From contig CM097885.1 in NCBI GenBank assembly GCA_044892525.1, positions 15,128,001-15,192,000 of the forward strand: 64,000 nucleotides of DNA, written 5' to 3'. The DNA is from Schmidtea polychroa. Taxonomy: Eukaryota. The notes under the pieces are model-generated. The model saw only the letters and a program-made list of their open reading frames with translations. It was not told the DNA's origin and searched no databases. The position numbers and the translations under genes were made by a program. Positions within the stretch are counted from its first letter, which is position 1. Every line of letters begins with the position of its first letter. Positions 29,729-64,000 of the stretch are shown one piece after another.

Positions 29729-30151
29729 GTCTTTTCTACTATTCGAGATGCTGGTCAAGATCACGTGACTCCATTATCCATTACTACTTCATCACCACAA
29801 CTCTTCACTCACTTCGACATTACAGAACCGAATACAACACAAAAATCAACAGAACTCCCTTACCACTTGACTCAACATTTATTTGACGAAATACCTTTAT
29901 GACACCGATTATTACCGCCTATTGGGGTAGTTTTACACAACCTTCCTATTATTAGAAAATCAAAAAAAAATCAGACGACAGAAAGGCTACTCATTCAATC
30001 ACAATATCAAGATGTTTATACAAATATTACAAAGTCTATGGGGAAGTCCCAGCGAAAATCATGTCGAGATCAAAGAAATCTCTCGCGTCTTCTTCCCAGG
30101 TAGTGCTAGAGGTGGGCACTACTCGAAACGTAGGCGGTGATCGGACTGCTA

Positions 30152-35102: not shown

Positions 35103-35204
35103 TTGGAGTAATTGGAGCAGTTGGAGTAATTGTAGCAATTGGAGTAATTGTAGCAGTTGTAGCAGTTGGAGCAATTGGAGTAATTGGAGCAGTTGGAGTT
35201 GGAG
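35103..35204. repeat. 9-bp degenerate tandem repeat (TTGGAGTAA/TTGGAGCAG), about 11 units
   Basis: Direct reading; minus strand would encode Pro/Thr-rich PTAPITPIA repeats. Confidence 0.9.
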
Positions 35205-36197
35205 ATCGTCATTTAGTTGGGAGAAAGATGGTGTCAGAGTTATGGATTCTGCAATAGTGGTAACATTATCTTGGTAGAGTTTTGGGAAGTCATCATCGTA
35301 GGAGTTTTCAGTAGTTTAAAGATTTGGTGCAGGTGTTCAGAATTTAGAGGTTTGGATTGGTCTTGATAGGTGGAGGTGATCGATATTGCACGATTATTGA
35401 TGTTGGTGTATATTTCACTGTTTGGATTGATTGTAGTAGTTGGAGTAAATGGAGCAGTTGGGGAGGTCCGCCATTTGAGAGGAATACCGGATCGTACATG
35501 ATAATATCTGAAATAAATAAATGTCGGGGCAGGAAGGCTCCCTTGCAAGGTTTATATATCGCATATTATATTACTTATTATAGTATATATTGGAAGGAGT
35601 TGGTGAAGGTTGGGATAAGTATGGTAGTGATTATAGTAGTGATAGTATAATAAAGATCATTATAGTATTGATAAGAACAACTAAAAAGACCACCAAATAG
35701 GCAGAACCCCTACAAGGATTCCTACATTAACCCATTCGGTGATTGGCACACGCAGTACATTATTAATNNNNNNNNNNNNNNNNNNNNNNNNNNNNNNNNN
35801 NNNNNNNNNNNNNNNNNNNNNNNNNNNNNNNNNNNNNNNNNNNNNNNNNNNNNNNNNNNNNNNNNNNNNNNNNNNNNNNNNNNNNNNNNNNNNNNNNNNN
35901 NNNNNNNNNNNNNNNNNNNNNNNNNNNNNNNNNNNNNNNNNNNNNNNNNNNNNNNNNNNNNNNNNNNNNNNNNNNNNNNNATTAGCAATAACAATAATAA
36001 TATTATATTAAATACATTAAGAATAATAATATTACACCATTAGGAATTATGGTCATTAAGTTAATTTAGAGAGTTTAGATATTTATATAGTTGATTAGTA
36101 ATAGTAAATAATATAGATAATAGCCATAGTACACAAATAAAATAGGATAATGCTCTGAGTATATATTATATATCAATATCTGGGTTTCAAGATTGGT

Positions 36198-38798: not shown

Positions 38799-38806
38799 TT
38801 CATTAT

Positions 38807-39568
38807 TTAAATTTTGGAGATTTCCTCTTTAGGGGCAAATTTATATTTTTGTCTCTTGGTAAAGACCAGTTCTTTACTAACCTTATAATTTTTATGAATT
38901 ATGTCCGCTGCTTTCTTTGTGATGTATTTATGAGGATTAATGCTTCCATTAATTCTCTCAATCTCACTTAAAGCAGCATCGCACTCTATTAGATTATTGT
39001 TAAGATTAATAATTAGACAATTGATAAATGGTCGGAATCTCCGCACATCATCAATTGGCAGTTTGCAATAATTATAATTATTTATAGTAGTTTTAATATT
39101 ATTTATCATATTGGGTATATTAGGACAAGTTAATTTTTCACGTTTAATAAGGCATTCGATAAAGTGACATATATAGAAGGCAGAGTCAGTAGGTATGAAG
39201 CAGCGAGGGTAATCGGGGTTTTGAAGTTCAATTTTGACAGGGCTAACAATTTTTTGGAGATCAAGAATGGTTTCGAGAATATTTTGAGCTAGAAAGAGGT
39301 GAGTAGAAAGGCCATCATCCAGAAGCGGGTCAATGAGGACGGCAAGTCTACGGTGTTTGTCGAGTAGAAAAAAGAACCAGTTGTCCTTACCATCAGACAT
39401 GGGCATGATAATCTCATTCCATTGAGCAAATTCAGAGAATGGAAAGGTGGCAAAGAAAGTTACATAGTTATGCTGGATAAGTGCATTTCCTATGAAAGGG
39501 TCCACAAAGATAGAGGAGTTTTTCAAGGCATTTGAAAAGATGTATGCCTTGATTGCGTGTTGGGACCA
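38807..39568 (-). pseudogene. Ulp1-like cysteine protease domain with altered catalytic residues
   Basis: WSQHAIKAYI...IIMPM..DNWFFFLLD...VLIDPL...PTDSAFYICHF follows the Ulp1 layout; His>Asn, Cys>Ser. Confidence 0.6.
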
Positions 39569-42500
39569 TCATGTCGACTCTTTCTCAACATTATTACCAA
39601 AAATAAGGGTATCAGGAAGAGGTCGTTTGACAATTTCACTTTCAGAGAAGGTAGCCTCAAATTCTTGCGACTCAAGTATAGGGCGTAGGTTGTTCACATT
39701 ATCGGGGGAACTATCCATTACTTGGGAGATCACAGGCGGAGTGGGGATATTGCCCGGATACACGTAAGGTTCAGGGTGGTTTTCGAGAATATGTTGTCGG
39801 ACATGGTGATGAGGGATCCATGATCCGCAGAAGCAGTATACCTCCTCGTCAGGATAAAAGATAAGTTTTTTATGCTTGACCTTTATATGGTTAATAATGG
39901 TCATAAGAGGGGTGTCAATGTCGAAGGTGATTTTACATTTTTTACGATTTTTGCTATAGTTGAAGCAGGTAAGGTTATTGGAGGGTGATATCCGTATTTC
40001 AGCGCGGCTCATATATTCAAGATCACATTGGTCTATGTGTTGAAAATGGACAATGTGATTATAGATTTGTTTGAAGGTTATAGGATTTGGCGCGTATTTA
40101 TTCTCACCGGGGGCTCTACATTGAATGCAATCAATAAGTGTGTTTTCGTCAATTTTTAATCTATGAAAGTCCCATGCGTGTTTAAAGATTTTTTTACGAT
40201 TATGGACAGAAATAGGACTGCATAGGGTTGTCTTGCATTTCAATCTGCATTCAATTTTACCCCTACCATTAAGTTTGAAAAATATTTTGTTGTCTAGTTC
40301 ACTCTCATCTGCAGTTTTTGGGATGAAGACATTGCGTGTGTGTTTGGCTAGTGTAATGGGTCTGAGATAATTAGGAGATGGGCCAGGGATATTAGTCGCA
40401 AACACTTGTATTTTTTTATTAAATACTTCCATTTGTGATTGTATTCTTAATGCCTCTTGGATTTCGTTGCATTCAGATTCAGAAGGAGTAGGTGCGGTGA
40501 TTTTAGGTGTACTGCTAAGCTCAATAGCGTTGGTAGTTTTAGATTGAGTAAGTTCAGGCGTATTATGAAGAGAGGCAGTTGTCATAGGATGTAGGTCAGT
40601 GTTGTTGTCGGGAGAGGAAGAGGCTGTGGGCTGGAGAGGTGGTTCTTGGTCGATAGAGGCTATACTGCTGCTCGATAGATTCACATCATCTATGTCCGAG
40701 TTAAAAAGATCATTGTTTGGCTGGGGATTTACAAGAGATTGAGAAGGGTTATGAGGAGTTTGAGAATTAGACTCATCCATTGGAAGGGGGTCAATGGTGT
40801 CATCAAGGTCACAGCTGTAGTGTGAAGTGTCAAGAATGTAATCAGAGCAAGAGGAGGACGAGTGGTTAGGCGAGAGATCAGAGTCATTGTCAATAGTATC
40901 ATTTAATGGAGATCGTTTAACATGGGGAAGGGCAATGAGGGAATCATCAGTATTGTTCTCATAATTATTAATTTTATTTTTATTTTTATAAATAGAGTAA
41001 AGGGTTGTGTATTTACCCTTACGTATGATTTTTTTAACAAAACACGATTTTATTACTTTATTATTGTTATCGTTATAAGTTGGGGGAAGGTTTTTAAGAT
41101 CCTTGGGCTTATGGATGAAGTCATTGGGAATAGGCTCAGAATAATGACGTTTCATTGAAGTTCCAAGGTTGTTATTTGAAGGATTTACAGGTATAGTTGG
41201 GATATTTGAAGAGTTAGCTAAGTAATTGGGCTTGTTTAGAGAAGTAAGAAAGGTATCAGTAGCTTGGGAATTTGCTGGTTGTGTTCCAGTTGAGTGTTCT
41301 AAGGTAGGCGAAAGACTAACAGGATTTCCACTGAAGGTGACTGTCTTTGCAGATGCGAGGCGGCCGTAGGCCTGCGAGCTGCGTGTTTTCTCGTGTTCCG
41401 AAGGAACACGAGAAAAATTTTTAAGAGAAAAAGCATGGTTAAATAAATGATATTTAAACAAAGATTTATCTTTGTTTAATATAGATAATTTATTTAAGCT
41501 AATAAAATCAGAAATATTATTAAATATAATGCTAATTAATTCGTTAGGGAGTCTTTCGGTGGAGTTTTGAATTTTATTATAATCAATAATTATTTTTTTA
41601 ATAACATATTTAATTTTGTTCTTAAAAAATTTTTCATAATTATAATTAGTTAGGTCATTTTCATAATTATTATTTTTATCTTTTAGATTTAGATTTTCAA
41701 CATTTAAATTGGAAGTATATTTAGAATTATAATTAGTTTGGACATTTTCATTATTATTTTTATCCTTTAGAATTAAATTTTTATCATTTAAATTGAAAGT
41801 ATATTTAGAATTATAATTAGTTTGGTCGTTTTCATAATTATTATTTTTATCCTTTAGATTTAAATTTTCATTATTTAAATTGAAAGTATATTTAGAATTA
41901 GATTTAATTAAATTACAATTATTACAGTTTAATTTCAATTCATAGTTTTTAAAATTTAAATTAAAATTATGATTATCAAAAATTACATTACAATTTTTAC
42001 TATTTAAATTGCATTTACAATTATTACATATTAATTCGTGAATAGACTTTTTATGATTATAATCATTATAGAAATTTTGATTATAATTACCTTTATTTTT
42101 ATTTAGGATGTGAATCCTCCGAGCAGGGCAAAAGGCTTTCCAAGAAGTATCTCTGGTCGGGTCCGAGGATGCATTCTCTGGAGCAATAATATCATAACAA
42201 GGAGGAGAGATTCCGTATTTCTTCAGGATCTTCCTGGCAGGACAGAATCTGCTATCCATCACCTCACAGTCGTCTGGTTTCCTTGGAGCATCAAGATTCG
42301 ATACATCAGGGCAGGAGGCATAAGGTGATTCAAGGAATCGGATTTCATTATTTCTATAAGGAGGATTAGTAAATGTTGAAAGTAATTTATCCTTGATGCC
42401 ATTTCCCGGATTGGAGCTTCTTCCATTTCTGTTTGAAGGAGCTTTATCGGATCTAGAAAGGAGATTAGACTGTGATAAAATCAAATTTTTATTAATGATA

Positions 42501-42655
42501 TCTCCAGGATTGGAGTTTCTTCCATCAGTAAACGTATCGTCATGTTCAGAGTCCTCAGCCGATTTCTGCCCAGTGCTATGAATGATATATAGCAGTAGTT
42601 CTGCTAAGCACTGGGTAACGGCGGGTAATAAGTATTTGAATAGATTGACTTGCAT
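39569..42655 (-). CDS. N-terminal region of the NeSL polyprotein: C2H2-like fingers, low-complexity linker, inserted Asn-rich segment
   Basis: 1028-aa ORF with four Cys/His clusters near its C-terminus; separated from the Ulp1-like part by a single in-frame TGA. Confidence 0.75.
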   Translation of the reverse strand: MQVNLFKYLLPAVTQCLAELLLYIIHSTGQKSAEDSEHDDTFTDGRNSNPGDIINKNLILSQSNLLSRSDKAPSNRNGRSSNPGNGIKDKLLSTFTNPPYRNNEIRFLESPYASCPDVSNLDAPRKPDDCEVMDSRFCPARKILKKYGISPPCYDIIAPENASSDPTRDTSWKAFCPARRIHILNKNKGNYNQNFYNDYNHKKSIHELICNNCKCNLNSKNCNVIFDNHNFNLNFKNYELKLNCNNCNLIKSNSKYTFNLNNENLNLKDKNNNYENDQTNYNSKYTFNLNDKNLILKDKNNNENVQTNYNSKYTSNLNVENLNLKDKNNNYENDLTNYNYEKFFKNKIKYVIKKIIIDYNKIQNSTERLPNELISIIFNNISDFISLNKLSILNKDKSLFKYHLFNHAFSLKNFSRVPSEHEKTRSSQAYGRLASAKTVTFSGNPVSLSPTLEHSTGTQPANSQATDTFLTSLNKPNYLANSSNIPTIPVNPSNNNLGTSMKRHYSEPIPNDFIHKPKDLKNLPPTYNDNNNKVIKSCFVKKIIRKGKYTTLYSIYKNKNKINNYENNTDDSLIALPHVKRSPLNDTIDNDSDLSPNHSSSSCSDYILDTSHYSCDLDDTIDPLPMDESNSQTPHNPSQSLVNPQPNNDLFNSDIDDVNLSSSSIASIDQEPPLQPTASSSPDNNTDLHPMTTASLHNTPELTQSKTTNAIELSSTPKITAPTPSESECNEIQEALRIQSQMEVFNKKIQVFATNIPGPSPNYLRPITLAKHTRNVFIPKTADESELDNKIFFKLNGRGKIECRLKCKTTLCSPISVHNRKKIFKHAWDFHRLKIDENTLIDCIQCRAPGENKYAPNPITFKQIYNHIVHFQHIDQCDLEYMSRAEIRISPSNNLTCFNYSKNRKKCKITFDIDTPLMTIINHIKVKHKKLIFYPDEEVYCFCGSWIPHHHVRQHILENHPEPYVYPGNIPTPPVISQVMDSSPDNVNNLRPILESQEFEATFSESEIVKRPLPDTLIFGNNVEKEST
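41640..41900. repeat. 84-87-bp tandem repeat x3 inside the ORF
   Basis: Encodes SKYTFNLNxxNLxLKDKNNNxENxxTNYN three times. Confidence 0.9.
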
Positions 42656-44452
42656 TTAAAAATTTTTAAGAGAAAAATCTGTTTGCAGATAGTCAGAAGA
42701 ATTAGTCGGAGCGGTGAATGAAAAATGGATTGCTATGAGGGCTTGGGTTAATTATTAATCTACCAGATAAAATTGATTCCAGAGTTAGATTTTCCTCTGC
42801 TATGTTGATTCGTGATAAGGACTGTCAACTCGTTCGCTCAACGGCCTCCACCCATAATCGATACACTAGATATCTTATCGACTGTCTGACTGTCTACTGC
42901 GACTAACTCTAATCTGAATGGAAATGAACAGATGATTACTCGAGATTACAGTTTCTTTCGGGCTTATGGTAAGTGTTTTAATCTATTATCAAGAAATGTT
43001 TACATTCATATCTAAGTCGAGCTATTATCGATGACAGTGGCTAGGCACCGGCCGATTATCAAGTCTATTCAGAACCAATAAAATCAAGATTATGGATTTA
43101 TTCGTTAGCGTCCTGGCGATGCAAATCTTAGAAAAGCTTCAATAATCATGACACCCAACGCGAACACCGTCTGAACCCCGCAAATAATGATCTCCTGACG
43201 GATATTTAGACAACCAATTTTTGCAATGTAAGAGGAAATCGTCTATCAATCAAAGCTCAATAAAGACGCGATTGGATATAGTGCTGATGATTTCTCAAAT
43301 CGTACTCCTCCTGGATTCAGTGGATTCATTTTCGGCTTCAAATTATGTAACTGCTAGTTTTCAATTGAAAATCTTTTCGACGACGAGAGTGGCTGATCTC
43401 ACTCGGTGAAAGAACCTCTGGCATCATATATTATCATTTCTCTCGGGGTTTCCTCACCCCTCATGACCCACCCAAGAACAGTACGCAATGCTGCCACCGC
43501 TCTTATACCGTCATGAAGGACGAATCGACCCAATTACTCTCAGAACAATAAATATAGCAAAAATCAGTTACGGATATCAATAAATAAATAAAATGAATAT
43601 TTACCTGGCGACCATGCCATTTGGGTTCCTGGTGTGATGAGTCTCAATTCCTCCACCGTTTCGTTGCTTATTTGTTCATCTTTCCGCATTTCACAAGCCT
43701 CCATCATCTTGGCTGATGTCCCCCACATTACTTATCTCTTCGATTTCGAAAAATTACTCGGATTCATATCTACAACTCATTTCCATCACACCAGAAGCTC
43801 CCAGAGGACATCGTCGCCAGCACCATGAAGAAAAAGCAATATGTTGTATGATAAATAAAATTTATTAATATTAAATTGTTAGTTTGAATATCATTTCAAA
43901 ATAAAATCTAAATACACATAAATAAAATAAATGATAACCCTTACCAAAATTCTTCCTTGAGGATGTCGAAAATTTGAATCAAACGGTATCTTAAAAATTT
44001 TCGCTAAAGCTAATGTCCTGGTTCTCTTAACTTAATTCACTGTCCGATCTGTCTAGATAAATTCGGTTCGATTCTGGTAAACGATCCCTGTAAATGATTT
44101 GTGAAGTTTTGTTCAAAGTGGTTCCGGTTAGTAGATTGAATGAGTATCGTCCCTGTAGTGTTTGGTTAAAAATCGGTTCCTGCAATCGTGGATTAAAAAG
44201 TGGTTCCTGAATGTCGTTCTGTAGAGTTTGGTTAAAAGTGGTTGTTCAAATTTAAAAATTTTACCTGTAGAGTTTGGTTAAAAGTGGTACTCTAGTAATT
44301 TTTCGCGTTTCTTATATACTATTTTTTATCCAATCAGGACTCGGTTAGTTTGTAATTTTATTATTTATTATTATTTTTATGTTTTTCATTGTAATATAAT
44401 GAATTTTAGTGACCTTATTTTATTTTTTATTATTATTTTATTATTTTCTTAA

Positions 44453-47040
44453 CCCTTAAATGCATGATGATGTATTTATACATCAGTGTATTTGTCCTTA
44501 AATAATTTCTAAACGGTAACTCAAACACAGTATATTTTGCTTTTATTAGGTGCTAAAAATATTTATCTTAGTTTCTGAACGCAAGCTGTCACAATATGGC
44601 AGTTAACTTTTTCAATTGTCAAAATTTGACAGCTTGGCGCAGCATTTTCGAATACGCACTTTGGCGGTCAAATTAAAATTTTATTTTAATGCATACTAAA
44701 TAGTATTATTACGCGATAAAAGTGATTGACGAGAGGATAGAGGTAAGCAGAACACGTTGCATTATTTTTTTTTAAATACAGTAACAGTTTTTGTAAATAT
44801 TAGCTGTACAATTGTGATGTAGAAATACATCAGTATGCAAAATCGGTTAAAAAAAAGTTTTACTGCAGGTATAATATATTTTTTTATTTTTGACTTATTT
44901 GTATACAGATACATACTATATTCATATGAATTTTATGATTATTTATCCAGAATGTCCCGTGAATTGGCAGACAAAGACATAGAACAACTTCTGGCAGCTT
45001 TAGAAGATGGAAATATTTCTGAGGATGGCTTGGAAGATGAAAGTGAAGATGAAGAAACCTTTTTCGCTAATGCAAGAGAAATAATTCAAGAGTTGGAAGA
45101 CGAGGATGCAGAGGACCATGAAGATCCTACCTATAGTGATCCACCACTAGTTCAAGATTTGCCTGGCCCATCAAGTCAAACTATTATTTCATTACCCATG
45201 CAAGAAGGTATTCAACAATATGTAGAGTTTGATAAAAGGAAACTCATTTGGAAAAAAGACAGTTTGTTGTTTGACGAATCGAAAATAATTCACCAACCAA
45301 ACACAACAGACTCTGCTATAACTGAACTTGATACACCATATAAATGTTTTTTGCACTACTTCACACCAGAGTTCCTTCAAAAAATTGTTGATAAAACTAA
45401 CTTATATGCAGTACAGAAAAACCCTTCAGTATCTTTCACTACTACTGTTGGGGAGTTAAAAAAATTCATAGGTATTCTTTTATTTATGTCAGTGGAGCAA
45501 TTCCCTAGTGTACGCTCATACTGGCATTCCAAGTTTGGGTACGATCCTGTAAAGAGCGCGATGCCTGTAAATCGGTTTGAGATGATTCGGAGCTACTTAC
45601 ATTTCAACGATAATAATAAACATCTTCCGCGAGACCATTCCGATCACGATCGCCTCCATAAGATTCGGCCTGTGATAGAACAGCTAAATACGACATTTTC
45701 ATCAGTTGCAATAGACCAACGACTTTCTATAGATGAACAGATGTGTTCCACTAAAATTGCACATTTCCTGAAGCAATATTTACCAAATAAGCCTCACAAA
45801 TGGGGCTATAAGCTTTTTGTTCTCTGTAATCTTATGGGATATGCTTACAGATTTGAGGTCTATTCTGGACAAGAAGAAAAAAAAGACAAACCAGCCCATG
45901 AACCTGATCTAGGAATAACAAATAACGTCGTTATACGTATGGCGAGAGCTATACCAAGGATGAACAATCATATAGTATTCTTCGATAATTTTTACACATC
46001 CCTGCCTTTAGTAAATTATTTGAATAAACAGGGTATACAATGTGTCGGAACTATTCAGCAAAACAGGCTACCGAATTGTCGACTCCCTGATAAAAAGGAA
46101 CTTATGAAAACTTCTGTTCCGAGAGGCACATATGAGGAACGCGTTTCCCATTCAGATGGAGTAGACTTTTCGGCCACTGCGCGGAAAGATAATAAAGTCG
46201 TCACTCTTTTATCGACTTACGTCGGCGCCGAGCCTGTTGGAAAAGTATCAAGATACGACAAGAAAGCTAAACAAAAAATTGACATCCCTTGCCCCAAAAT
46301 TGTGCAAGAGTACAACATGCATATGGGAGGAGTCGACCTAATGGACAGCTTTTTAGGACGCTATCGAATTCGAATAAAGAGCCGAAAATGGTATTTACGC
46401 TTGTTTTATCATCTACTGGACCTCACTACAATGAACTTATGGGTGCTTATGAAAAAAAATTTAATTGCTAAAGGTGTCACAAAAAAGCAGCTGCCTAATC
46501 TTGGGGAGTTTCGTAATTGTTTAGCTGACACACTGTGTAATATAGGTATGTCTGGAGGTAGTAAAAGAGGGCGCCCTAGTACTTCCTCTCTAGAACGCGA
46601 GCTTCAAATAAAAAGGCAAAAAGGTCCGCAACATCCACTCCCGTCAAAAGATGTACGCGTAGATAAATTCGAACATTGGCCCGTATTTGCCAATCGATTA
46701 CGGTGCAAGATGCCCAATTGTAAGGGCACCACACAATGGTCGTGTACCAAATGTAATATACCGCTGTGTCTAAATCAGAGAAACAACTGTTTCAAAGATT
46801 TTCATTCACTGCAGTAAGCCTAATTCGACGACAATCGTCCAATAGCACAGTACTTAGGCTACATTATTAATATTAACTGTAATGCATACTGATGTAGATC
46901 TACATCAGTAAGATTTTTTTATAAAAATATACTTTTTGGAAAATAAATATTTTTTTCTTTATTTTTCCCTTTATCTATGCTTAATTATTTATCTGTGTCA
47001 ATTTATAGTATTAAAAAAGGAAAAATCATGCATTTAAGGG
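44453..47040 (+). mobile_element. Complete piggyBac transposon
   Basis: TTAA 44449-44452 and 47041-47044; perfect 16-bp TIR CCCTTAAATGCATGAT. Confidence 0.98.
44835..46817 (+). CDS. piggyBac transposase, intact (likely start MSRELADK at 44952)
   Basis: DDD triad SIDEQM, FFDNFYTS, GGVDLMD; C-terminal Cys-rich domain RCKMPNC...CTKC...C...CFKDFH. Confidence 0.95.
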   Translation: MQNRLKKSFTAGIIYFFIFDLFVYRYILYSYEFYDYLSRMSRELADKDIEQLLAALEDGNISEDGLEDESEDEETFFANAREIIQELEDEDAEDHEDPTYSDPPLVQDLPGPSSQTIISLPMQEGIQQYVEFDKRKLIWKKDSLLFDESKIIHQPNTTDSAITELDTPYKCFLHYFTPEFLQKIVDKTNLYAVQKNPSVSFTTTVGELKKFIGILLFMSVEQFPSVRSYWHSKFGYDPVKSAMPVNRFEMIRSYLHFNDNNKHLPRDHSDHDRLHKIRPVIEQLNTTFSSVAIDQRLSIDEQMCSTKIAHFLKQYLPNKPHKWGYKLFVLCNLMGYAYRFEVYSGQEEKKDKPAHEPDLGITNNVVIRMARAIPRMNNHIVFFDNFYTSLPLVNYLNKQGIQCVGTIQQNRLPNCRLPDKKELMKTSVPRGTYEERVSHSDGVDFSATARKDNKVVTLLSTYVGAEPVGKVSRYDKKAKQKIDIPCPKIVQEYNMHMGGVDLMDSFLGRYRIRIKSRKWYLRLFYHLLDLTTMNLWVLMKKNLIAKGVTKKQLPNLGEFRNCLADTLCNIGMSGGSKRGRPSTSSLERELQIKRQKGPQHPLPSKDVRVDKFEHWPVFANRLRCKMPNCKGTTQWSCTKCNIPLCLNQRNNCFKDFHSLQ

Positions 47041-47955
47041 TTAATGTTTATTGTTTTTCTCTTATTTTTCTATAGATTTATTGTCGTTTTGTTGCGATAT
47101 AATTTTTTGTTTTAATTAGCTTACAAATTTATTCAGGAATTGTTTTATTTTTATTTTATTTCTTTACTTTCTTATTTATCTTTCTTAAATTTTTGCTATT
47201 CTATTTCCCCTTTATTTGTTATGCGCATTAGGTAGTTTCTTTTTTGTCTTATTTTTTAGTCTTAAGGGTTTTATTATTTTATTAATTATTCCTATTTCTT
47301 TTATTGGTGTTTTATTTGTTTCTTCCTATATATTACTGAGGTTTTCGGTAAAATCTATTTTTATCTTATTCTATTATTCCGTGGGATTCCTTTCTACCTT
47401 TGATTCACTTCTCGACATTCTCAAGACTCGGCCCAACAGGAACACTAACTTGTTGCATGACCAAATGTAGGTTTCCGCTAGAAGAAAGACATTATTTTTT
47501 AAAATATTAATATTTTAAAAAATTAATGCCTTTGTTCCAGCGGAGACCTGCTTTTTGATGAGTCATCAGAAATACCAAGGTCAATGTTTATAAAGTGATT
47601 GTGATTTTCAAAATCAACCAATCAACTTTAACATAAATTTAAATCAATAAAATAGATTAATTAATAAAATAAAACCTGGATAAGTGAAAGATCAGCCTAA
47701 AATACATATCAGAGACTTATATGAGCGTGATTTTCATATAGTTCATAATACATTTGAAAAGAGAATCAAGAAAGTCGACTTTAAAATTGTCAACCATTCT
47801 CCTTATTACAACAAAGGATATGGTTATTGATGCTGCGGAGTCATGGTTTGCAGAATAGGATTAGAAAAACCTTGTGACCAATGCATTAAATATATATAGT
47901 TGAAAAGTGATTATGTTATATAAAATGATATTATATATCAACATTATATATATAT

Positions 47956-52350: not shown

Positions 52351-53352
52351 TTTGGGATTTTAGTCGTGAGCAAAACCTGTTTAAAATTTACAGTTAGATT
52401 TGATTGGTCTACAGAAATTGACAATGGATATCTTATAGTCGAAAATTTTTTAATTTATATTAAATATGCTATTTGTAACAAAGGGCTTAAATTATCATTT
52501 AATTGTTTAAAATTTAATTCATGCTGCTACCAAAAAAATCATCACTTTATAATTATAACACCCTTAATTATTAAATTGTATTATATTTAATTTCCACTAC
52601 CACAAGTGACAATTTGCAAAAAAATTAATTCCAACACTGCCTATTAAACACAATATATAAAATGCCAAGTAAAGCTGAAAATGATGAAATAGCAAAAAAG
52701 AAATTTAACTTAATATTTTATTTATTATTTGTCAGTAAAACTTAGAGTATTGAATAAACCAATTTTATTATGCTTAAAACGAAAATTATATAGAGAATTA
52801 AATTTATAATATTTTTAGTAATTAAAGAAGTCGTTAATGACAATCGATAATGGTAATATTTAAATAATTAAGATAAAAATATGAAATTTTTATTTTCACA
52901 AAATTTATCTTTTCAACCATAAGCTGTCGTAAGTTATTCATTTGATCGATTCATGAAAAGTAACACAACTATTAAAGGTTTTCAACTAAAAGAGTGTTTC
53001 TTTGGTTCATGAATATAATATATTTCTATATAAAATAAATGTTTTTTTCCTCTCAAAATATTTCGACGTTTCGAATTTTAAGATTATTGGTCTACCGATT
53101 CAATATTAGAAAGAAATTTATTCGGCCAATATATCACCAGATTGTTGGGCTGAGTCGAAAAGTATATAGGAAACTAGGAAGTAAGAAACTAAATAAAATA
53201 AAAACAAAAACAAACAAACTTAAAAATAAACAATAATCAAACATATGTTGGTGTATGTAGGGGGAAAGATCAACATTATTATCAAACACTCAAATCGTCA
53301 TCGTTCAATTCGGCCTTTTCCCGACATACATCCAAATGATCTTGCTAATATT

Positions 53353-53491
53353 CCGACGCATGAGCCCGTGGTGATGTTCCACGTTGGTGCTGCCCACACG
53401 GGTCGGAAGAGGTTAGCAGGTGAGCCTCTGCCTTAAAACTACTCCTAACCCCTTCTCGGTTCAGGTTCCTAGGCGCCTTGGAAGGACTTAC
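53353..53491 (-). ncRNA. Conserved two-hairpin cis RNA motif, copy D
   Basis: GGGGTTAG/CTAACCTC outer stem, ACCTG bulge; second hairpin with AGCACCAA bulge and CGTGG/CCACG. Confidence 0.65.
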
Positions 53492-54539
53492 CCATTTCCA
53501 TGCTCATACTCGGTCCAACCCTGGTCCAAGGGGTCGACCTTCATTTCATGGCATGTATTCAGTTAATAAATCAATCCATGCGTTTTACTCACCATTCTCA
53601 CAATTAAATCAACCAACATCAAGGAAATTATATTATTTGCATCACACGCTACAGGTTATTGAAGACAAAACATCTTACACTAATGTTTAATATAATATCG
53701 ACCAAAAACACTGATGAGTTGTCATGCACATAAGGATTGGTTAGTAAGCCTATTAGGAACAAGAGGTCGACACTGTCGTCACGTTAGGTCCTCAGAAGGC
53801 TTCTCCGTCGGCGAACACTTCGTCTATGTCTACGGGATATCGACGGTCCGCAAGATACTTGATTCCATCGGCCGGAACCACTCTAAATATTTCCTTGGCC
53901 GGAATCACATGGGAGGCTGAGATATCCTTAATAGTGGACTGGGCCACATCTACTATTGGAAATAACAAGATTCACTAAGAAACGATCAAATCTTCGCGTT
54001 GATGTTGGAATATATAACGATTTCCTCTGAGCTTTCCTATGCAATTTCTCTCTTTTACCGAGCTAGAAGGCTACTATTCCTCCATGGAAAAGTTGTCAAG
54101 ACATCATCGATCTCACTCGGCGAAGAAGCTCCTCTCGACTCGATCATTATTATCGACCAGATGTCCTCACCCCTCCTGACCCACCCAAGAGTGGCATACA
54201 TCTCTGTCACCACTCTTGGACCGTCAGGAAGGACGATTCTATCTCTACCCAACTCCCATCATAAATATATAGTGAACGATTATCAAAAAAAAATGAATTA
54301 CATGATTTGCTAGATGGATTTACCTATATAAAAAGATTATTTACCTGGCGACCACGCCGTCTGAATTTCGAACATGATGCCATATCGTAGTATCCATCCT
54401 ATTTTTACTGCTTCATTTCCAGTGAGGTCTCATTTATTCAGATCCTCAATTCAACGTCTTCACTGCTTATCGTTCATTCATAGGCATTTCCATTCATTCG
54501 AGTAAAGGATTATATATTAAACCGAATATCGAACCCACG

Positions 54540-55031
54540 TGCAATGAAAAAAAATGTTAAAATCGCTGTTCAGCAAATAGGATATAATATAATAAACCTT
54601 ACACAGAGTTCAACAGCCGAAGGAACAGCGGCAAATAGATCTGTCAGCAAGCGACCAAGATGTTATATTTGCCCTCGATCCGCTGATAAGAAAACAGGAA
54701 CAAGATGTTATGTTTGTAATCAGCCATCTTGCAAAACACATAAAAACCGTTTGCATAAATTGTATCAACGAAGAAGTAATGGATTCGCTCGAAGAAGAAA
54801 ACAATGAAATTATGTCAGACGATGCGTCTGGTTAATTTTTTTTATGTAATATAATATAATTTAAATTATCTTAATCTTATATATTTTGAATAAAAAAGTT
54901 TTTTTCATTAATTAATAAAAATAACATGACTATTTTTTAACAAAAAGATCATAAAAAGCATTAAAATATATATGGGGTCGGGTTGACCCCATGCACAGAC
55001 TATGGAAAATTTACTATGCACAGACAGAAGG
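54540..55031 (+). mobile_element. piggyBac 3' remnant (Cys-rich domain + terminus)
   Basis: RCYICPRSADKKT..RCYVC...C..H; subterminal GGGGTCGGGTTGACCCC; ends AAGG|TTAA. Confidence 0.75.
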
Positions 55032-58000
55032 TTAAAAATAAAGCATTTTAGTTAATTCTCTTTACACATATATATATATATATATATATATATCAATCAT
55101 AAACATAAGAATTCATTCATACTATTTACTACAATGATTTCTTCGAGAGTATTGAAACCAAGATCTATGAATTTTTCCCTTTTTCCTAGTAAATCGTATG
55201 GTTAGTTTTGCTGAAATTTCGATCGCTGTCTATTGAATGCTATATAAATGTTTGATGAATAGTTCTGGAAGGTTTTCGTATATCCTAGTCTGGTAGGTTC
55301 TGTTAGTAAATTGAATGAATATCGTCCCTGTAGAGTATAGCGGTTAAATGGTACTTAAAAATAATGGAATTTTACCTGTAGAATATAGCGGTTAAATGGT
55401 ACTCTACAGATATTCTTCATTGCTTATATACTATTTTTCGTCCAATCAGGACGCGACTAGTGTGTAATATTATTGTTTATTATTTTTATGTTTTTTAATG
55501 TAATATGTTAGATTTTAGCGACTTCTCTTATTTTTATTATTATTTTATTTATTTTCCTATTTTTTATTATCTTTCTCCTGTTTTTCTTATGACTTTATTG
55601 TTATTCGGTTATAATATAATTTTTTGTTTTAATTACTTCATATAAATATTTGAAAATGGTTTTATTTCTATTTTATTCCTAATATCTTGTTTATTTTTCT
55701 TAAATTTATTATTTTATTTCCTTCCGCTATCATAGGTGTTAGGTAATTTTCTTTTTCGTCTTACTTTTCGTCTTATGAACTTTATTATTTTATTATTTAT
55801 ATTTATTCCCTTTATTTTCTTTTATTGTTGTCTAATTTAATTGTTCTTATAGTTTCTGTGTTTTTTTTCGGGAAATTTATTTTATCCTTTTTTATTTATC
55901 CTTAACCTGGTTCTCAATACTCTCGAAGCTTGGCCCAACACATAAAAGAAACAATCAACTAAGAAAATAAGAATTAAAACAAAAAATAAAATTAAGAAAA
56001 TTTAAATAGGAAAATATAATGACGCATAAAATAACGAAAAATGCAATAAATAATCAGGAAATTAATAAAACAAATAAAAAATATAATAAAAATAAAGAAA
56101 ATTAAGGAAAATAACAAAAAAAAACAGGAAAAAGTAAACTAAATTAGAAAATAAGCGGTACTCAATACTGATTGGTCCGCACAAATGAAAAATTACTATA
56201 TAAACTGGCATTAAACCCTCACAATTACAGTTAACAAAAAATTCTACTTAGGTAAGGAACAATGTAAATTATCAACAGTTAACAAAAAATTCTACTTAGG
56301 TATTACCAGCAATAGACAGGAACTCCAGTTACGAATCATCGACAAATTTCGAATAATATTCAATCAGATCCAGTACATTTCGACTCAGCCTTCAAATCTA
56401 TCGAACAATTTGGTAAGGGAATTTTTTAATTATTACTACTTTCGTATCGTAATGTTAATTAGATAAAATTAATTTGTAATGATACTATTTCTTTTCATTT
56501 GATCTAGAAAATTTTTGGTAAATGTCGTTTCTATGCTTAATAAACGTATTATTTATAAACGGTTATGATTTATTTTATAATGGAATGATTAACAAATTTT
56601 ATGATTTCAACTTGCTGAGGAACGTGGAGTTGAGACTTTTCATACCATGGTGTGAGGGGCCTTCGGGTGCTCAGCCGGTGGGTATGAAATGTTTCAATCA
56701 CGCAGCTGATTCGGGCCGAAATGTGGGGGCTTCCTCACGGGTCCGTCGCTGAAGGTGCGACTAAATTATATGAAAAGATTACTCTAGAAAGGTGGTAGTT
56801 ATACAGTGATTAGAAGAGTAGATGTATAGAAGAGTTTTTGAGAATTCGCACAGTGATTGAGGGGGTCACACTATTAATTCGTAGGGTCGTCTTTGTGAAC
56901 TTTATAACATCTCGGTTATCTGAAAAATCCATACAACGATTCCTCGAATTCGTCTAAAAATTGGTGTCATCTCATAGCATACATCACCTAAAGGCATAAT
57001 CCTACGAAAAATGATTCCTATAACTTTCATTTTCCAGAACTCCGTAAACGTATTTTATCATATATCTCTTTCGCGCGTGCTTGATTTTGATAAATCTGTC
57101 AAGGTCGTATGTTAAAGTAAATTCCAAAAATTAACTAATTCTAAGAAGTACAAAAATACCACTAAATCCAATTTAACGAAATTTATTTCCCACAAAGAAA
57201 AACAGTTCAGCACAATATCTACCCAATATATCGAATATATAATGTCTGAGACTTAATTACGAACATTTACGATAATCCATCCAATTTAGAAAATTCCAAT
57301 CCGGATAGAGCACAGCGAGTAGTTGAAAATTAGCTTTTTTCTTTATTGTCTTCTATCGATCATCGAGATATTCCGTAAAAGTCCAACTATTGATGCTAAC
57401 GATGAGAAAAATTCCATATTGAGAGATAGCAGCAGTAGTAATGGAAAATTTCTATAACCGATCGTGCGGTGAGAGTCAGATAACATACGAATGACGAAAC
57501 GTCTGGGAAAATAACATCAAATGAGATAAAATCACAAAATTCATTTTGAGTAACGATCGGCAGCACGCAAGTTCACATTAGATAGGGCAGAGCAGAATAC
57601 ACACAGTAGGAGTAATTCCACTCAAGCACCAGACAATTTCGCCATGAAAGTCACAATTACACACACCGATTCACAGCGACAAATCAACATACAAGCATAT
57701 TAGTAGTCCCAGCATACCGCTGATGATAAATGGATAAACGAATTCACACCCACTACACGCTATGACTGCTATCGGTAAAGATCCAGCTATTAAAATCTCC
57801 TTCACATGCCATTCAGTGTTATCTCGAGTAGATGAGAACTAACCTAGTAGATTTGATCAGTAAACGTTAGATTCCTAGCACTAGGCAGATGTTCTGATTT
57901 CTTCAACATTTATACAAAGTTTATCAAACACGTCTGGTTAATTTCACTATTATCCTCTTCACATTGAACTAACCACAATAGGTCGCTAAATTATGATGTA

Positions 58001-58567
58001 ATAGTAAATCACTTGTTTAATGTTAAATGAATAATATAACAATTTTGTTTTTAAGTAAATTCTAATTAAATCTCAATCGTGCAATAATCCTATTCGGGGC
58101 TTATATCATTTAATTTATAGTTTTATTAAAGGGGGCATATAAATTTTCGAATTACTGATACTGAGTAACCCACTAAGATTTCGACTGAATGTATGTTTGT
58201 TTTGATGACCAGAATATTATTGTCCTACCACTATTAGCTTACCATCATTAATATTGCTAAGCGTTATAAACCCACAAATCTTCAGGTATAAAACATTGTC
58301 GAGATGACCAGTGCGGTTTTAGTATCATTGTTGGTCTACCATGCGATTTAGTATTTGAAGAGGGAAAATTAGGAGTTATTAATTATACTCATCTGTAGAA
58401 TTTTGATATTAGGGTGGTTTGCATTCGTCAGGTCAATGTTATCTAATTAATTGAATTATCTTTAAATAATTTACAAAGTGGAACCGATTCGTCAAAGGGG
58501 TTCTTTTTCTTTTGTCTGTCGAGTATCCGAGAGTAGCTAGTTAGTCATGTTCGATTTATTCTGAATA

Positions 58568-59230
58568 TTGCATATTCTATATCTCAATCTTACCTTTATA
58601 GCTATCATGATGCCAACTGCGAAGCCCGTGTTACGTCCATGCTTCTCCTGCTCGGATAAAAACGCAATCATCAAGGACCTACAGACCCAGATTGGGCGAT
58701 ATAAAAAGAAAATAGATGAATTAGAGGGGACATGGTTTAGTCCCGCTCAAATGAAAGAAACACAGAAAAAGCTATACCGTAGCGAACATTGTCGGGACGC
58801 TCTAATCTCCGAGAGCCGTTCCAAAAGAAGTTTGATAAAGGAGCAGTCCGAAGCGCTGCACAAAGTACACCTGCAGGCAGCGACCACTAGGAAAATAGTC
58901 AGAATTCCCATCAATGAAGCCGACAATCTCTTTCCGGCACACCACGACACTTCTTCAAAGTCGTCGCCTCCTTCTAAGAAGTCTTGCCAAGAGTGCATAG
59001 AGACTCAGCTCTCGCCCAAACAACCAGACGTCATTTTCGTGGGAACAAGTAAAGCGCCACCTACTATCGCTTCTACATCCACTATACCTCCAACTAATCC
59101 AACGACATCCAAGCCAAAGCGTCGGCAATTATCAAGAGCCGAATGTAAAAGGAAGCAGCGGGAGCGAATAACCACCAAGCAGAACACACAACCAACGGAA
59201 ATTGTAGCCAGGCATATGCATCTCACCTTT
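58568..59230 (+). CDS. CxxC/coiled-coil LTR ORF, copy E, truncated by the viral insertion (likely start at MMPTAK)
   Basis: RPCFSCSDKN...EGTWFSPAQMKE...EHCRD...CQEC...KRRQLSRAE. Confidence 0.75.
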
Positions 59231-59262
59231 ATAAATACGAGGTTTCATTTTATAATTTCAGA

Positions 59263-60165
59263 ATGACTGATAATATTCTAAATACTTTTGTAGAAAAAAT
59301 TAAATTGTACTTAAACAAACCAAACGAAACTTACCCAGAATATATTTTACCTGAATATTTCAATAGATTTTCAGACACACCGAAGGCATATATCAAAGAA
59401 GATAGTGAAATTTATTCACTATACAAACACTATTATAACGAATTTCATCCGCTACTGATTGGTCCACACTCGGTCAAATTAGCATTCGTATTAGATTCAT
59501 TTGCTGGTAAGTTTAGTTTATATGAATATTTTATTATTTAAATATTAGATTTAGATTTTCAAAACGACATATTAGAATTATGGGATCTAGTAATCATGAA
59601 AAGGACGATGAGGGTCAATCAAATACCAATCTCTCCAATGATGGACGAAGTCATGAGAGGAAACGAAGGAGACATTCTTCTCGAAGACATAAACGAACTC
59701 ATCACAAACGACATTCCAGCATACAAGAAATCTCTAGCGACAGTCAAGAGCGGTCAAGTAGTATATCTACCGTACTGTCTGGCACATCTGTGTCCGATAT
59801 GCGAACTCCTTCGAAGACTAGTTCGATACCTAAAATCAAGCGACCTGCTAAGCACGTTTCCCGCAAACATTCGAGCAGGAGACACAATGATTCTCAGCAT
59901 CGTGATATACCAGCTATCAAAGATGTTACTGAGTTGGTTTCAGATAATAAAGCTCAAAATAATCATCCGGAACGAGCAAGAAGATTTAATTCCTTCAAAT
60001 TTCAAGTATCTGTTAACAAATATCGATCTTTGGAGCCGGAGCTTAAAAAGCTCATGGAGGACAAATCCTTCACAAGATTCGTTACAGGTCAAGAAGAGGA
60101 AGGTGATAATGGATATCACCATATGCAAATGTATTGGGAGGTATTATTTATTTTATTCAATTTAG
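59263..60165 (+). CDS. Spliced accessory ORF (exon 59263-59506, exon 59555-60165) overprinting Rep
   Basis: G|GTAAGT donor at 59507 and TTAG acceptor at 59554 (or 59548) join ORF 59263 in frame to ORF 59596. Confidence 0.6.
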
Positions 60166-60999
60166 ATATTAATGGAATAAAATTAATAATTACAGATTTA
60201 CAACAATATGTCAGTATATGCCTTTAGGGCAAAGACGGATATTCCCTTTGTCAGAGGAGTCGCCGGAGTCGAGCGTCAATCCGCTATCGAATATGCAACA
60301 AAACCTGAGTCTCGAGTTACAGGAGGACTATCTGTAAACATAGGAACTCAAAGTAAATTCAATTGTGCTTCTAATACAGATTACTTCAAACAAGCTCTAA
60401 ATTCTGCCTCGATGAAAATAGGATTAGAAATATTAATGCAGCACGAAGCATTCCATTACACAACAAAACGAAAAACAATAATGGAAACTTTCGTAAATAA
60501 ATTCGGACAATCAACTATGCCAAATTTTAATGACAATTTCATGATTGACAAAATAAATTTACTTGACTGGAAGAGCCATATTTTTGTTGGAGAATCTGGC
60601 ATTGGTAAAACAAACTTTGCCTTGTCACACTTCAAGAATCCTGTTCATTGCAAGCATCTCCAAATGCTTAACAGAATATCCGATAATGTAGATAAATGTG
60701 ACGGTGTAGTTTTTGACGATCTATATTTTAATAAAACAAGAATAGAAGAATTTCTTTCATTGGTAGATTGTGCATATGAAAATGTCATAAATATCAAGTA
60801 TTCGGTAGCTGTTGTTCCAAAGGGATTACCCAGAATATTTTGTATAAACGATTTGGACCTATTTTACCCAGAATGCATTTCTCCAACAATTATGGAAGCT
60901 GTACATAGAAGAATAAAAATACATCATTTCCGAGGCAGGATATTTAGAGAATACAAATCTGAACAAGTAAAAATTTTGTTATATTATTTTTTAAATTAA
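59580..60999 (+). CDS. rep: Rolling-circle Rep (HUH endonuclease + SF3 helicase), exons 59580-60140 and 60196-60999
   Basis: Motif I-like FKFQVSVN, motif II HHMQMY, motif III YATK, Walker A GESGIGKT, Walker B VVFDD, motif C RIFCIN, Arg finger AVHRR; a 55-nt GT-AG phase-0 intron joins the halves. Confidence 0.85.
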
Positions 61000-61171
61000 T
61001 TATTAGACAATGAAACATCCATATCTGATACCGAGCCAATGTCCCAACCAAAGTGTCGATTGCTCAGTATCCAGTGCAAATCATGTATGAAGTTCATGCG
61101 AATTTACTTGGGAGTGTGCAATAATAGTTTTTAATGTTTAATGTTTTATAATAATAAATGTTTATAAACAG

Positions 61172-61840
61172 TTAAAAGAAATTCTTTATTTTATCAAAAA
61201 TATCATACTTAACATCATTCAATACATTTATATCTTCAAATACATTTATATGAGTATTAAATTCGTATGCCTTTTCTACAACAATATATAGGGAACGATT
61301 TTTAAGAGCTTGTTCATGTTCAGAGGCATATTTCCATATAGGATGATTATTGGATATTATACATGGGCAATTACTTAGTTCAATTTTTGAATCACCTTTA
61401 CGAGAAACTTTTAGAAAAATATTACCTTCACATAATAACTTTAATAAATTAACATTTTTGAAATCGCAATATATTTCTTCTCCAATGATAATTTCTTTTC
61501 CGACACAATCATCGAAACAAAATTCACTTTGAGTTTGTGCACCAGTAAAAAATCCATGTTTAAGAGTCCCACGACAAATTGCAGTAAATAATGTTTTTCC
61601 ACCATTACTTGCACCTTCTAATATAATCGTCTTGGTCTTTCCGGCTTGAGACGATAAGATTGTATATATCCCAAGAAGACGACGAATATATTTTTCATTT
61701 TCTTTAGGGATAATGTGACGATTTTCAGAAATAAGTTTATTAATTTGTCGATTGTGATCGCTGTTAAAATGGAAATTATTGTTATTAATAAAAGCTTCCA
61801 TAAAAGTTGATAATTCATTGTATAACAATAGCTTATTCAT
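61172..61840 (-). CDS. Stand-alone parvovirus NS1/papillomavirus E1-like SF3 helicase domain
   Basis: Walker A GASNGGKT, FCFDDC...IIIGEE (Walker B), KLLCEG...VSRK (B'), PCIISNN (C), ALKNR; no nuclease domain. Confidence 0.85.
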   Translation of the reverse strand: MNKLLLYNELSTFMEAFINNNNFHFNSDHNRQINKLISENRHIIPKENEKYIRRLLGIYTILSSQAGKTKTIILEGASNGGKTLFTAICRGTLKHGFFTGAQTQSEFCFDDCVGKEIIIGEEIYCDFKNVNLLKLLCEGNIFLKVSRKGDSKIELSNCPCIISNNHPIWKYASEHEQALKNRSLYIVVEKAYEFNTHINVFEDINVLNDVKYDIFDKIKNFF

Positions 61841-62034
61841 TAGACAATGAAAGATAATTGTAATATGTGTGTATAAATATTATTGATTATTTGTGTTTTA
61901 TGACTCATCTTAAAAATATTATAGTAAAGTAAAGGCATTTATTACTATGCCATTCTTGGATAACCCATCTGCCTGTACTTTACTATATATATTTTAATAA
62001 ACTCCCACGCAGTCATGTGTTTTGCGGTGTGCTT

Positions 62035-62173
62035 CTCTCATAGACTTGGTAAGAGAGGGGTGTCGGGGGGCCCCTATATCTATAGCACGCCATGGCGTGC
62101 TTATTAATAAACCATGGTTTATTATGAGATATAGGGGCCCCCCGACACCCCCCTCTTACCAAATCTATGAGAG
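62035..62173. repeat. T-shaped terminal hairpin (inverted repeat with two internal palindromes)
   Basis: 47-bp arms 62035-62081 and 62127-62173 (2 mismatches); palindromes GCACGCCATGGCGTGC 62085-62100 and TAATAAACCATGGTTTATTA 62105-62124. Confidence 0.95.
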
Positions 62174-62537
62174 TGACTTGGGAGGAGAATGCCTCTGAGA
62201 TTTTCGACTTAGAGGAGTTGCTAGCAGATACGGAGTGTTAGAAATAAGAATGCTCTCGTGGGGTAACTCTATCATTAGGAAAATAGTCGAACTAAATATC
62301 ATCGTGTTTTTCTGTCATTGTTTTCTCTCATCTAGATATTCCTGTTGTATATAAATCATCGATGTTGTGTATGTTTGATGCTACAACAAATAATTTTATG
62401 TCTTTACCTCATTTAGTTTGTAAAGGATTTAGTATGACTGTAACAAAGAGGGTTGAAGGTTCCTCGAGAATTCTAGGAGTATTAGTCAATTGTATCCCAA
62501 CCAGAGGTAGGAAAGTGAATTTATAATTCGGATAGAC

Positions 62538-62679
62538 GTAAGTCCTTCTATCGGCGGTCGAAAGCGGTAAGTCGAGGCCTCAGTAAGGAGTAGTCCTAAG
62601 GTAGGGGCTCACCTGCTTACTGGTGTCTCGCCGGCATGGTACAGTTCCAACGTGGAGCAATTCACGGGTACCATGTTGG
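62538..62679 (+). ncRNA. Conserved two-hairpin cis RNA motif, copy in unit E
   Basis: CAGTAAG/CTTACTG stem with ACCTG bulge; CCGGCATGGTAC/GTACCATGTTGG stem, AGTTCCAA bulge, CGTGGA-GCAA-TTCACG. Confidence 0.65.
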
Positions 62680-64000
62680 ATGGCAGGTTATGTGCGGGCT
62701 CTGCTCGGGGTTGACAAAGTAATGACGAGCATAATCGTAACGGGCATTCATCTCCTAGGCCAAAGTTGAATTATTGGTGAGTAGTGCCCCAGCAAGATAT
62801 AAATTTATTCAAATAATGCGTTTCTTCCATTTTTTGAACAACGAAAATTAAAATACCTGTAAACTTGGTAAGATCGAAAATATAATGCAAAAACTGGCTC
62901 AAATTTCCTAACTGCATTCACACTGGTAAAAATATATGTATTAATAAAGCTTGCAGCTTTGAAAAAGTTAGCTAAGTTTCAATCAATATATGATGATAAA
63001 TGCAATTCTAGTCCAGCACTATTTCAATACTACAAAATCGGAGGTGGTGACATTGTAGACAAATAAAAAAAGTTTATTTCATTTTCAAAAATGGAGATAT
63101 TGAATGTCCTCTTCGCCCAAAAATGGCAAGATAAAAGAAGTTTATAAGTTGTAAATTATTCACATTAATGAGTTTGCTAATTGTAGCAATAGTAACCGAG
63201 TTACAAATAAAAATATAACGAAACCATGATCTATTATGGAGTATTCGAAGCATATGAGATGTGTAGATTCATTTGATATGCAGAATTTGATTTTCAGAAT
63301 CTGGCAAAACAATAAAATGATAAATAATTGTTTTCCGTTTCATAGATATGACAGTGTATTATTTGCCATAATGTATTTGCTTTTTACAAAATAAAGCATA
63401 AAAATATAAAGCATTTGACAGATATACGCCTTGTAGTGGTTTATTTTTTAAATATGTAACTTTTATCATTTATCAAATTGCAGACATTCAATCGCAATTT
63501 CGAAAAGTAAATGGTAACTTTCAAACCTCAACAAAAGGGGTTTATCAAAAAAATTTGCAACTATGTGTAAAGATTACAACATCCAACATTGTACAATAGA
63601 TTATTTCGAAGATTATCATAGCAAAATTCAATTTTAGTCAAAAGAATAATTAGGATAAATTTATTGATGTAAATAAAAATAACAAAATATAAAATTTAAT
63701 AATTCAAGTTCCTTTTCAAAATTTTTCATCATTTAGAACCTGTTTTTATTGAAAGTTATCTTTAAAAATTTTATTGTATAATGTTACGCAATTCAGACTT
63801 TATATTTTTTTCAATTCACTTTCATATGAAGGTGAGACATTATTTAATCAATAAATTAGTAAACACATTGACGACAATACGAATTTTTTCATTTCTGCTT
63901 TGTGAGACAAAACTAATAAAATAATACAGTACGTGAGGTGAAGAAGTTAAGCAAGTACTACGGACGTACTATTGTCGCAAATCGAACAAGACAGGTCCAC

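Follow-up and report, generated by a model that had tools for sequence, protein, structure and literature searches.

A spliced gene predicted within the long terminal repeats of Burro-type gypsy elements in Schmidtea polychroa, and its possible role in regulating the element

Burro/GYPSM1 (Jurka 2007; Grohme 2018) is a group of giant gypsy-like planarian elements, which according to the section text of PMC6431247 are about 30 kb long, have an internal region of up to 25 kb and encode a single polyprotein of about 4,900 amino acids (aa) with BIR and BCL2-like domains among its domains. In the available text of the respective sources, Burro is described as being under PIWI control (PMC8532177) and is cited as supporting regeneration (PMC13465017), and PMC11410931 has, in its available text, nothing on the anatomy of the long terminal repeat (LTR). 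The present analysis concerns 64,000 nucleotides (nt) of S. polychroa contig CM097885.1 (positions 15,128,001 to 15,192,000, referred to as the window), in which five diverged units, A to E, are LTRs of such Burro-type elements. Solo LTRs are as a rule left-over promoters that encode no protein. The reading put forward here, to which a probability of about 0.6 is assigned, is that each intact Burro-type LTR carries a spliced gene of about 250 aa, and that its protein is a trans-acting nuclear regulator of the element's expression. What a major planarian repeat most often leaves behind would then have the make-up of an entire spliced gene, which is maintained because selection acts on the replicating element.

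First of all, the five units align poorly with one another as DNA, yet they share a common open reading frame (ORF) family and a common 3′ motif. When the ORF was searched in the genome, which comprises 781 Mb and has four large chromosomes, 6373 first-look candidates were obtained, and its recurrence is not due to chance, since all 150 scored matches had E ≤ 7e-68. The preliminary description had proposed gypsy-type LTRs, and the genome-wide check for paired copies agrees: both the E and the C/D types of LTR flank a gag-env-pol region with a transfer RNA (tRNA)-Pro primer site and 4-bp target-site duplications (TSDs). Of the five same-strand pairs that were fetched, three proved to be genuine LTR pairs bounded by 4-bp TSDs and two (C336 and C1:16.98 Mb) to be tandem duplications; a B-like pair was really a solo LTR and an unrelated copy, and B-type LTRs were found only as solo copies. 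The cleanest full element (G000:C2:121354348-121383648) is 29.3 kb overall with 21.8 kb internally, and has LTRs of 3756 and 3755 bp that are 99.7% identical within a TSD of ATTC; the C/D-type pair has LTRs of 4187 and 4186 bp (99.3%, TSD AATT). All four full elements have a 4-bp TSD, and the LTRs have TG..CA ends.

The genome-wide TSD survey, which took the union of two end-calling scripts, covered 59 LTRs (40 from among the best E-type matches and 19 D-type matches, including some segmental duplicates such as L114/L115). Of these, 34 were solo LTRs with an exact 4-bp TSD, 6 were joined to internal sequence, 4 had both ends with neither feature, and both ends were not found in 15; no 5-bp TSD was seen in the survey of the sampled LTRs by one of the scripts. 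Uninterrupted LTRs measure 3.7–4.3 kb. That the units are LTRs is thus regarded as practically certain. In L103 and L108 one LTR type is inserted in or beside another, as D is within E, and in L108 this has happened in the opposite orientation, at the conserved 3′ motif of the other LTR.

The primer site lies 7 nt past the end of the 5′ LTR and is complementary to tRNA-Pro(TGG) genes. These genes form a tandem array with a 475-bp period at G000:C1:130.90-130.95 Mb, and 1555 pattern matches occur genome-wide. In two copies (the L120:3893 region and L076:7303) the 7-nt distance is seen together with a conserved 3′ internal end of GGGxCCCxGAGTGATT and no plain purine run, and, judging from this arrangement, the element may process its ends and prime its plus strand in an unusual way.

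The link to Burro, which the preliminary description had raised, holds for the domain set and for the size of about 30 kb, both in agreement with PMC6431247 as far as its section text goes. The domain order of the full element is Gag, CCHC knuckles, a SUMO-like domain, a fusion glycoprotein, protease (PR), reverse transcriptase (RT), RNase H (RH), integrase (IN) and ankyrin, then RING-TRAF-MATH. Gag (PF03732, 4e-10) and the CCHC knuckles (PF00098, 5e-8) are N-terminal; the Env-like fusion glycoprotein (PF24664, 1.5e-63) lies between gag and protease in one open frame with PR and RT; the SUMO-like match (2e-4) is below the curated cut-off. In common with the Burro description are the Gag with its knuckles, the SUMO-like domain, the position of the glycoprotein, PR-RT-RH-IN, ankyrin and MATH/TRAF, as well as the element length and thousands of candidate copies. 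On the other hand, RING-TRAF-MATH here forms a separate ORF past pol, accompanied by three unnamed ORFs, and no BIR or BCL2-like match (E ≤ 0.05) was found in 10 scanned pieces of one copy, a scan that covered all but about 106 codons of the polyprotein and the ORFs of 200 aa or more. The polyprotein of the copy examined is in four pieces totalling about 4,000 aa. A further difference is that the section text of PMC6431247 names no gene, intron or RNA structure within the LTR.

It is the gene inside the LTR that appears to be the new part, the Burro-type element itself being already known. No description of such a gene was found in the literature searched; Grohme 2018, Lee 2026, their supplements or Repbase may contain one. 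Among 86 loci searched for the LTR ORF, 80 have an ORF with ATG, and 41 unbroken ORFs of 243–263 aa were used for the selection analysis after six had been removed as duplicates or for shifted tails. The ratio of non-synonymous to synonymous substitution rates (dN/dS) is 0.107 among 29 E-type ORFs (dS 1.26), a value biased downwards because these ORFs were chosen by protein likeness, and again 0.107 among 9 C/D-type ORFs, for which the bias is much smaller because they were chosen by DNA overlapping only the last ~45 codons. Residues 1–115 have a dN/dS of 0.04–0.07, and 48 alignment columns are kept across four subfamilies. A splice acceptor lies within 14 nt ahead of the ATG in 70 of the 80 ORFs, whereas among 4800 random ATGs only 591 (12%) have one, as counted with a looser pattern and a background control; an earlier strict pattern gave 7/40 for the E type. 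AATAAA is found 129–149 nt past the stop codon in all 29 full-length E-type ORFs.

The splicing itself has left a trace in L104, a 2083-bp solo LTR with TSD ATTA, in which precisely the ~2-kb intron is missing, its first bases being GTAAGT and its last the CAG that precedes the ATG. Of the 79 candidates, 40 matches were scored, and L104 alone among them shows this loss. At the resolution of blastn, exact GT-AG removal was found in none of six other short copies (five E-type copies and L102). The best explanation for so precise a loss is that a spliced RNA was reverse-transcribed, and it follows that these splice sites have been used in vivo. Contigs of four read runs, compared with a young LTR, gave no splice-type joint among the matches listed, which is uninformative either way. 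Against all this, the idea that the ORF is a chance or captured frame without function can point to the lack of matches to named families, but it is largely refuted by the selection data (dN/dS of 0.04–0.11 at dS above 1, with the 48 columns kept in four subfamilies) and by the acceptor placement and exact intron loss, and is hardly credible. The LTR therefore very probably holds a real spliced gene of about 250 aa.

The preliminary description had gone further and had suggested that each solo LTR could be a self-contained gene. Selection, acceptor, poly(A) signal and exact intron loss speak for the gene, but not all of the units are solo and none of the five window ORFs is intact. All five are broken because the ORF is split by a hAT element in A, frameshifted in B, frameshifted and cut short in C, hit by a deletion in D and interrupted by a virus-like insert in E. 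This bears on the possibility that the host has domesticated the LTR and retains solo genes by selection. In its favour, solo copies are the majority, their frame is open in 17 of 22 E-type and 7 of 12 C/D-type solos, and private changes are mostly synonymous (52 versus 17 non-synonymous); however, this test cannot tell whether it is the solos or their source elements that are under selection, and it is confounded by unsampled active lineages and by the choice of copies. In addition to the five broken window copies, the paired LTRs of two elements differ by 4 non-synonymous changes and 1 synonymous change that arose after insertion, as neutral decay predicts, although the numbers are tiny. Domestication is accordingly considered improbable, and selection seems to act on replicating lineages and not on solos.

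As for the layout, the LTR can be read as a promoter and a short exon, followed by a 2-kb intron that contains a structured RNA, then by the ORF and its poly(A) signal, and lastly by about 400 bp with a structured donor. In the proposed mechanism, transcription would start right after the TATA box (in the E type at about +390), the first exon, short and non-coding, would be spliced over the ~2-kb intron to the acceptor ahead of the ATG, and the mRNA would end at the AATAAA 130–150 nt past the stop. This would make the repeated (R) region about 3 kb long, and a short spliced mRNA would arise from the 5′ LTR as well as from each intact solo LTR. Coding sequences inside retroviral LTRs are known from sag of mouse mammary tumour virus and nef of human immunodeficiency virus, which lie in the unique 3′ (U3) region upstream of the promoter and are therefore out of reach of the promoter of a solo LTR. 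The ORF described here, by contrast, is downstream of the predicted promoter.

A long R of this kind is rather probable on sequence grounds. The alternative is a short R followed by a giant unique 5′ (U5) region, in which the genomic RNA would end soon past the TATA box of the 3′ LTR by means of an AATAAA in the A-rich U3, the gene would lie in a ~3.3-kb U5 leader, and the AATAAA past the ORF would serve a subgenomic mRNA only. Many AATAAA hexamers in U3, and the 10 C/D-type ORFs, past which only variant hexamers and no conserved canonical AATAAA occur, agree with the short R, and the exact intron loss is compatible with either layout. However, no U/GU-rich tract follows the TATA box, whereas the AATAAA past the ORF has one and stands in 29/29 E-type copies amid divergent sequence, and with a short R the strong-stop DNA would exceed 3 kb. 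The short R is thus judged unlikely.

Two RNA structures are conserved in the LTR. The 3′ structure was aligned in 30 copies of four subfamilies: 15 of its 28 pairs are compensatory, 96.8% of cells are paired against 35–46% with partners slid, and its covariation is 0.40 against 0.07–0.11 for slid partners and 0.16 for shuffled ones, the shuffle test being inflated by copy relatedness. GTAAGT and CTCACCTGC are invariant within it. The E-type intronic structure has 11 compensatory pairs out of 49 in 20 copies. There is no known ribozyme or RNA family in the LTR, because Rfam gave no match in the window at the gathering score and none in a young LTR at E ≤ 5. The intronic RNA (L120:6884-7048, minus strand; window 56669-56678) contains GCTCAGCCGG, which is identical to the core of the tRNA-Pro primer site, and the primer tRNA might pair with the intronic RNA also.

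The genomic RNA would be a read-through of the 5′ LTR poly(A) site, probably by means of U1 at the invariant GTAAGT of the 3′ structure. The nearest precedent is the poly(A) control of foamy viruses, described in the available text of PMC3694450, where U1 acts at a donor that both LTRs carry. Here, too, a donor close to the poly(A) signal is invariant and forms part of a conserved RNA structure of the LTR, but it is about 155 nt downstream of the hexamer, whereas the donor of foamy viruses is upstream.

In the AlphaFold model, the LTR protein has long helices at residues 13–40 and 46–98, a disordered middle, a basic helix at 177–190 and a helical acidic tail, at a low overall confidence (predicted local distance difference test, pLDDT, 62; predicted template modelling score, pTM, 0.24). 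For residues 8–115 a homodimer was predicted with a score of 0.55, the best control being 0.00, and the runs agreed in at least 86% of contacts at a pLDDT of at least 79; in calibration with microbial proteins, 21 of 30 solved pairs but none of 23 single chains attained the mark, and among animal pairs 7 of 16 did so, though coiled coils may pass dimer tests easily and the animal counts are small. The Arg-rich window (median 10–11 K+R per 20 residues) and the acidic tail (net charge −6, −4 and −2.5) are kept across subfamilies. The protein would dimerise by its coiled coil, bind a nucleic-acid element of the LTR by its Arg-rich helix, and then either activate expression by the acidic tail or export unspliced RNA.

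The first mode resembles Tat and the foamy-virus Tas, whose layout is a Cys motif, a basic region and an acidic tail. These parts and a predicted early spliced product are shared by the LTR protein; the likeness is one of layout, and the genes of Tat and Tas are in the internal region. The second mode resembles Rev/Rex/Rem, for which the available text of PMC3856414 offers as common features a small protein from a spliced mRNA, a predicted multimer, an Arg-rich helix and a structured RNA in the intron; it differs in that no sequence likeness and no conserved export signal were found, and in the position of the gene wholly inside the LTR of a gypsy element. Activation in the manner of Tat/Tas is put forward tentatively, and export in the manner of Rev is somewhat more doubtful still.

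That the protein regulates its own element is slightly favoured over the other roles. Instead of regulating expression, it could counteract silencing, interact with the host or form part of the particle. Such a role would suit the many host-interaction domains of Burro in the section text of PMC6431247, the silencing of Burro by PIWI in that of PMC8532177, and the fast divergence of the protein between LTR types, with E and C/D proteins 36–38% identical while blocks of the RT/RH/IN region are 85–98% identical. On the other hand, the basic helix, the acidic tail and the two covarying LTR RNA structures suit a regulator with a cis-target, and the fast divergence would be expected as well if regulator and target diverge together. 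These other roles are therefore regarded as possible but rather unlikely.

Several points weigh against the self-regulation reading. In addition to the biased choice of E-type ORFs, the single copy with exact intron loss, the missing canonical hexamer of the C/D types, the low fold confidence and the lenient dimer test, a leucine-rich export-signal pattern is absent from L061, has no shared place in six proteins and is not conserved across subfamilies; an export-signal-like stretch is present in the distant relative P0008. No function is named by Pfam matches of the LTR ORFs or by PDB or Atlas matches: a word-index protein search gave 0 of 680 candidates, Atlas matches were 0.82 or lower, and Foldseek found none in PDB at E ≤ 0.001. 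Transcript start, poly(A) site and R are all predictions. Moreover, since GTAAGT is in both LTRs, the choice of poly(A) site needs a further switch, and none was found.

A profile search gave 16 distant relatives (E 8e-17 to 3e-4), several with longer Arg runs. All 16 lie within unnamed proteins, most of them joined to unrelated host-type or transposase parts, and because of this the LTR acceptor probably corrupts gene models.

The internal region of the C/D-type pair is 75–81% alike as DNA to that of the E-type element, whereas the two LTR types align only at their 5′ end. Closely related polyproteins with non-aligning LTRs, as in the two elements located at G000:C2:121.35 Mb and at C1:61.16 Mb, suggest that LTRs either have been swapped or diverge fast. 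A wider proposal, speculative and rather less likely to be right than wrong, is that a gypsy lineage independently evolved control in the style of complex retroviruses: the LTR would be a regulatory operon with an R of ~3 kb, a Tat/Rev-like gene and RNA response elements, LTR types would be exchanged, each as a matched module of regulator and target, while the polyprotein backbone is shared, and the regulator would be supplied in trans by solos in their thousands. If the gene reading is true, thousands of solo LTRs could each be a working gene, and Burro expression data and Burro RNA interference may mix LTR-gene transcripts with genomic RNA. If the protein is Tat- or Rev-like, this type of control is not confined to retroviruses, and solos dispersed in the genome could exert it in trans.

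Returning to the window (Table 1), the features first read from it were largely recovered. Unit starts with TGTTGGGC were found at 20487 and 53143 on the plus strand and at 33507, 47438 and 55940 on the minus strand, the A-rich tract, CTGATTGG and TATATAA are near the start of all five, and the exact 4-bp TSDs of E and D are as described. Other features held for part of the units: the CCAACA/CCAGCA end is present in A, D and E, but C has no 3′ terminus and the 3′ end of B falls in N; the conserved 3′ RNA motif is present in all units but C; a homologous ORF is present in A, B, C and E, but D has no ORF start; C, D and E have splice donors within the duplicated motifs, but in A and B such donors are not clear. 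Solo status stands for E and D, but A is a 3′ LTR, as the adjoining 17482-20497 matches the 3′ internal region of the full element at 65–74% nucleotide identity.

Table 1. Features of the five LTR units and their inserts, in window positions.
Feature	Position	Strand	Remarks
3′ internal region upstream of unit A	17482..20486	+	MATH-region remnant and three accessory ORFs; terminates in GAGTGATT
Unit A	20487..27180	+	3′ LTR of truncated element; ORF from 23674
hAT element splitting unit A ORF	23903-26112		8-bp TSD CCAGCGGC
Unit B	29491..33507	-	LTR; ORF 30781-30155, frameshifted ahead of tail; 3′ end in N
Unit C	33930..47438	-	LTR, D type; no 3′ motif/terminus; ORF 34432-33992
Non-LTR retrotransposon nested in unit C	about 36.1-42.7 kb		
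piggyBac nested in unit C	44453-47040		TTAA
Unit D	53246..55940	-	Solo LTR, TSD CATA
Presumed piggyBac-like remnant inside unit D	about 54440-55035		
Unit E	53143..62794	+	Solo LTR, TSD AGAT; about 4 kb when its two nested inserts are excluded
Promoter-like motifs: CTGATTGG (reverse CCAAT) and TATATAA	56168..56203	+	Putative promoter
Splice-donor-like sites, GT at 56252 and 56413	56252..56414	+	Predicted non-coding first exon(s); either donor possible
Conserved structured RNA in predicted intron (E-type)	56623..56755	+	Candidate response element
Pyrimidine tract and AG acceptor, 5 nt ahead of ATG	58585..58601	+	
LTR gene codons 1-199 (CxxC, coiled coil, Arg-rich helix)	58607..59203	+	Interrupted by virus-like insert
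Virus-like insert	59204..62170	.	Rep-like helicase ORF (+), Parvo_NS1 ORF (-), T-shaped hairpin 62035-62173
LTR gene last codons (acidic tail)	62173..62241	+	
AATAAT at AATAAA place of 29/29 full-length E-type relatives	62389..62394	+	
Conserved 3′ RNA structure, invariant GTAAGT and CTCACCTGC	62538..62685	+	

Outside its inserts, unit E is 87–95% alike to L061/L063. Unit D has lost about 2 kb internally relative to its 4.1–4.3-kb relatives, including the ORF start, so that the last ~45 codons remain; no splice donor is at the start of this deletion. The remnant inside D is taken to be piggyBac-like from its TTAA-CC end and Cys-rich ORF.

About 76 nt of LTR are gone where the virus-like insert entered unit E. 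Its minus-strand ORF matches Parvo_NS1 in Pfam (PF01057, 7.6e-14), its T-shaped hairpin has z = −15.8, and its Rep-like P-loop helicase ORF has no Pfam match, the motifs being recognised by eye. Relatives elsewhere in the genome are 69–89% alike, and some of them form head-to-head arrays, near G000:C3:28.1 Mb and near C1:52.6 Mb. The insert is likely PIVE-like: it has in common with the planarian virus-like elements PIVE/PEVE, as given in the available text of PMC3198968, a parvovirus NS1-like helicase, a hairpin end and many integrated copies, a likeness of features alone.

Elsewhere in the window, presumed hAT-like transposase frames and Polinton-like fragments are found at 1482-3258, 15484-16947, 28175-28903 and 48396-50105. 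In the non-LTR retrotransposon nested in unit C, one in-frame TGA (39569-39571, minus strand) stands between frames of 1028 and 253 aa.

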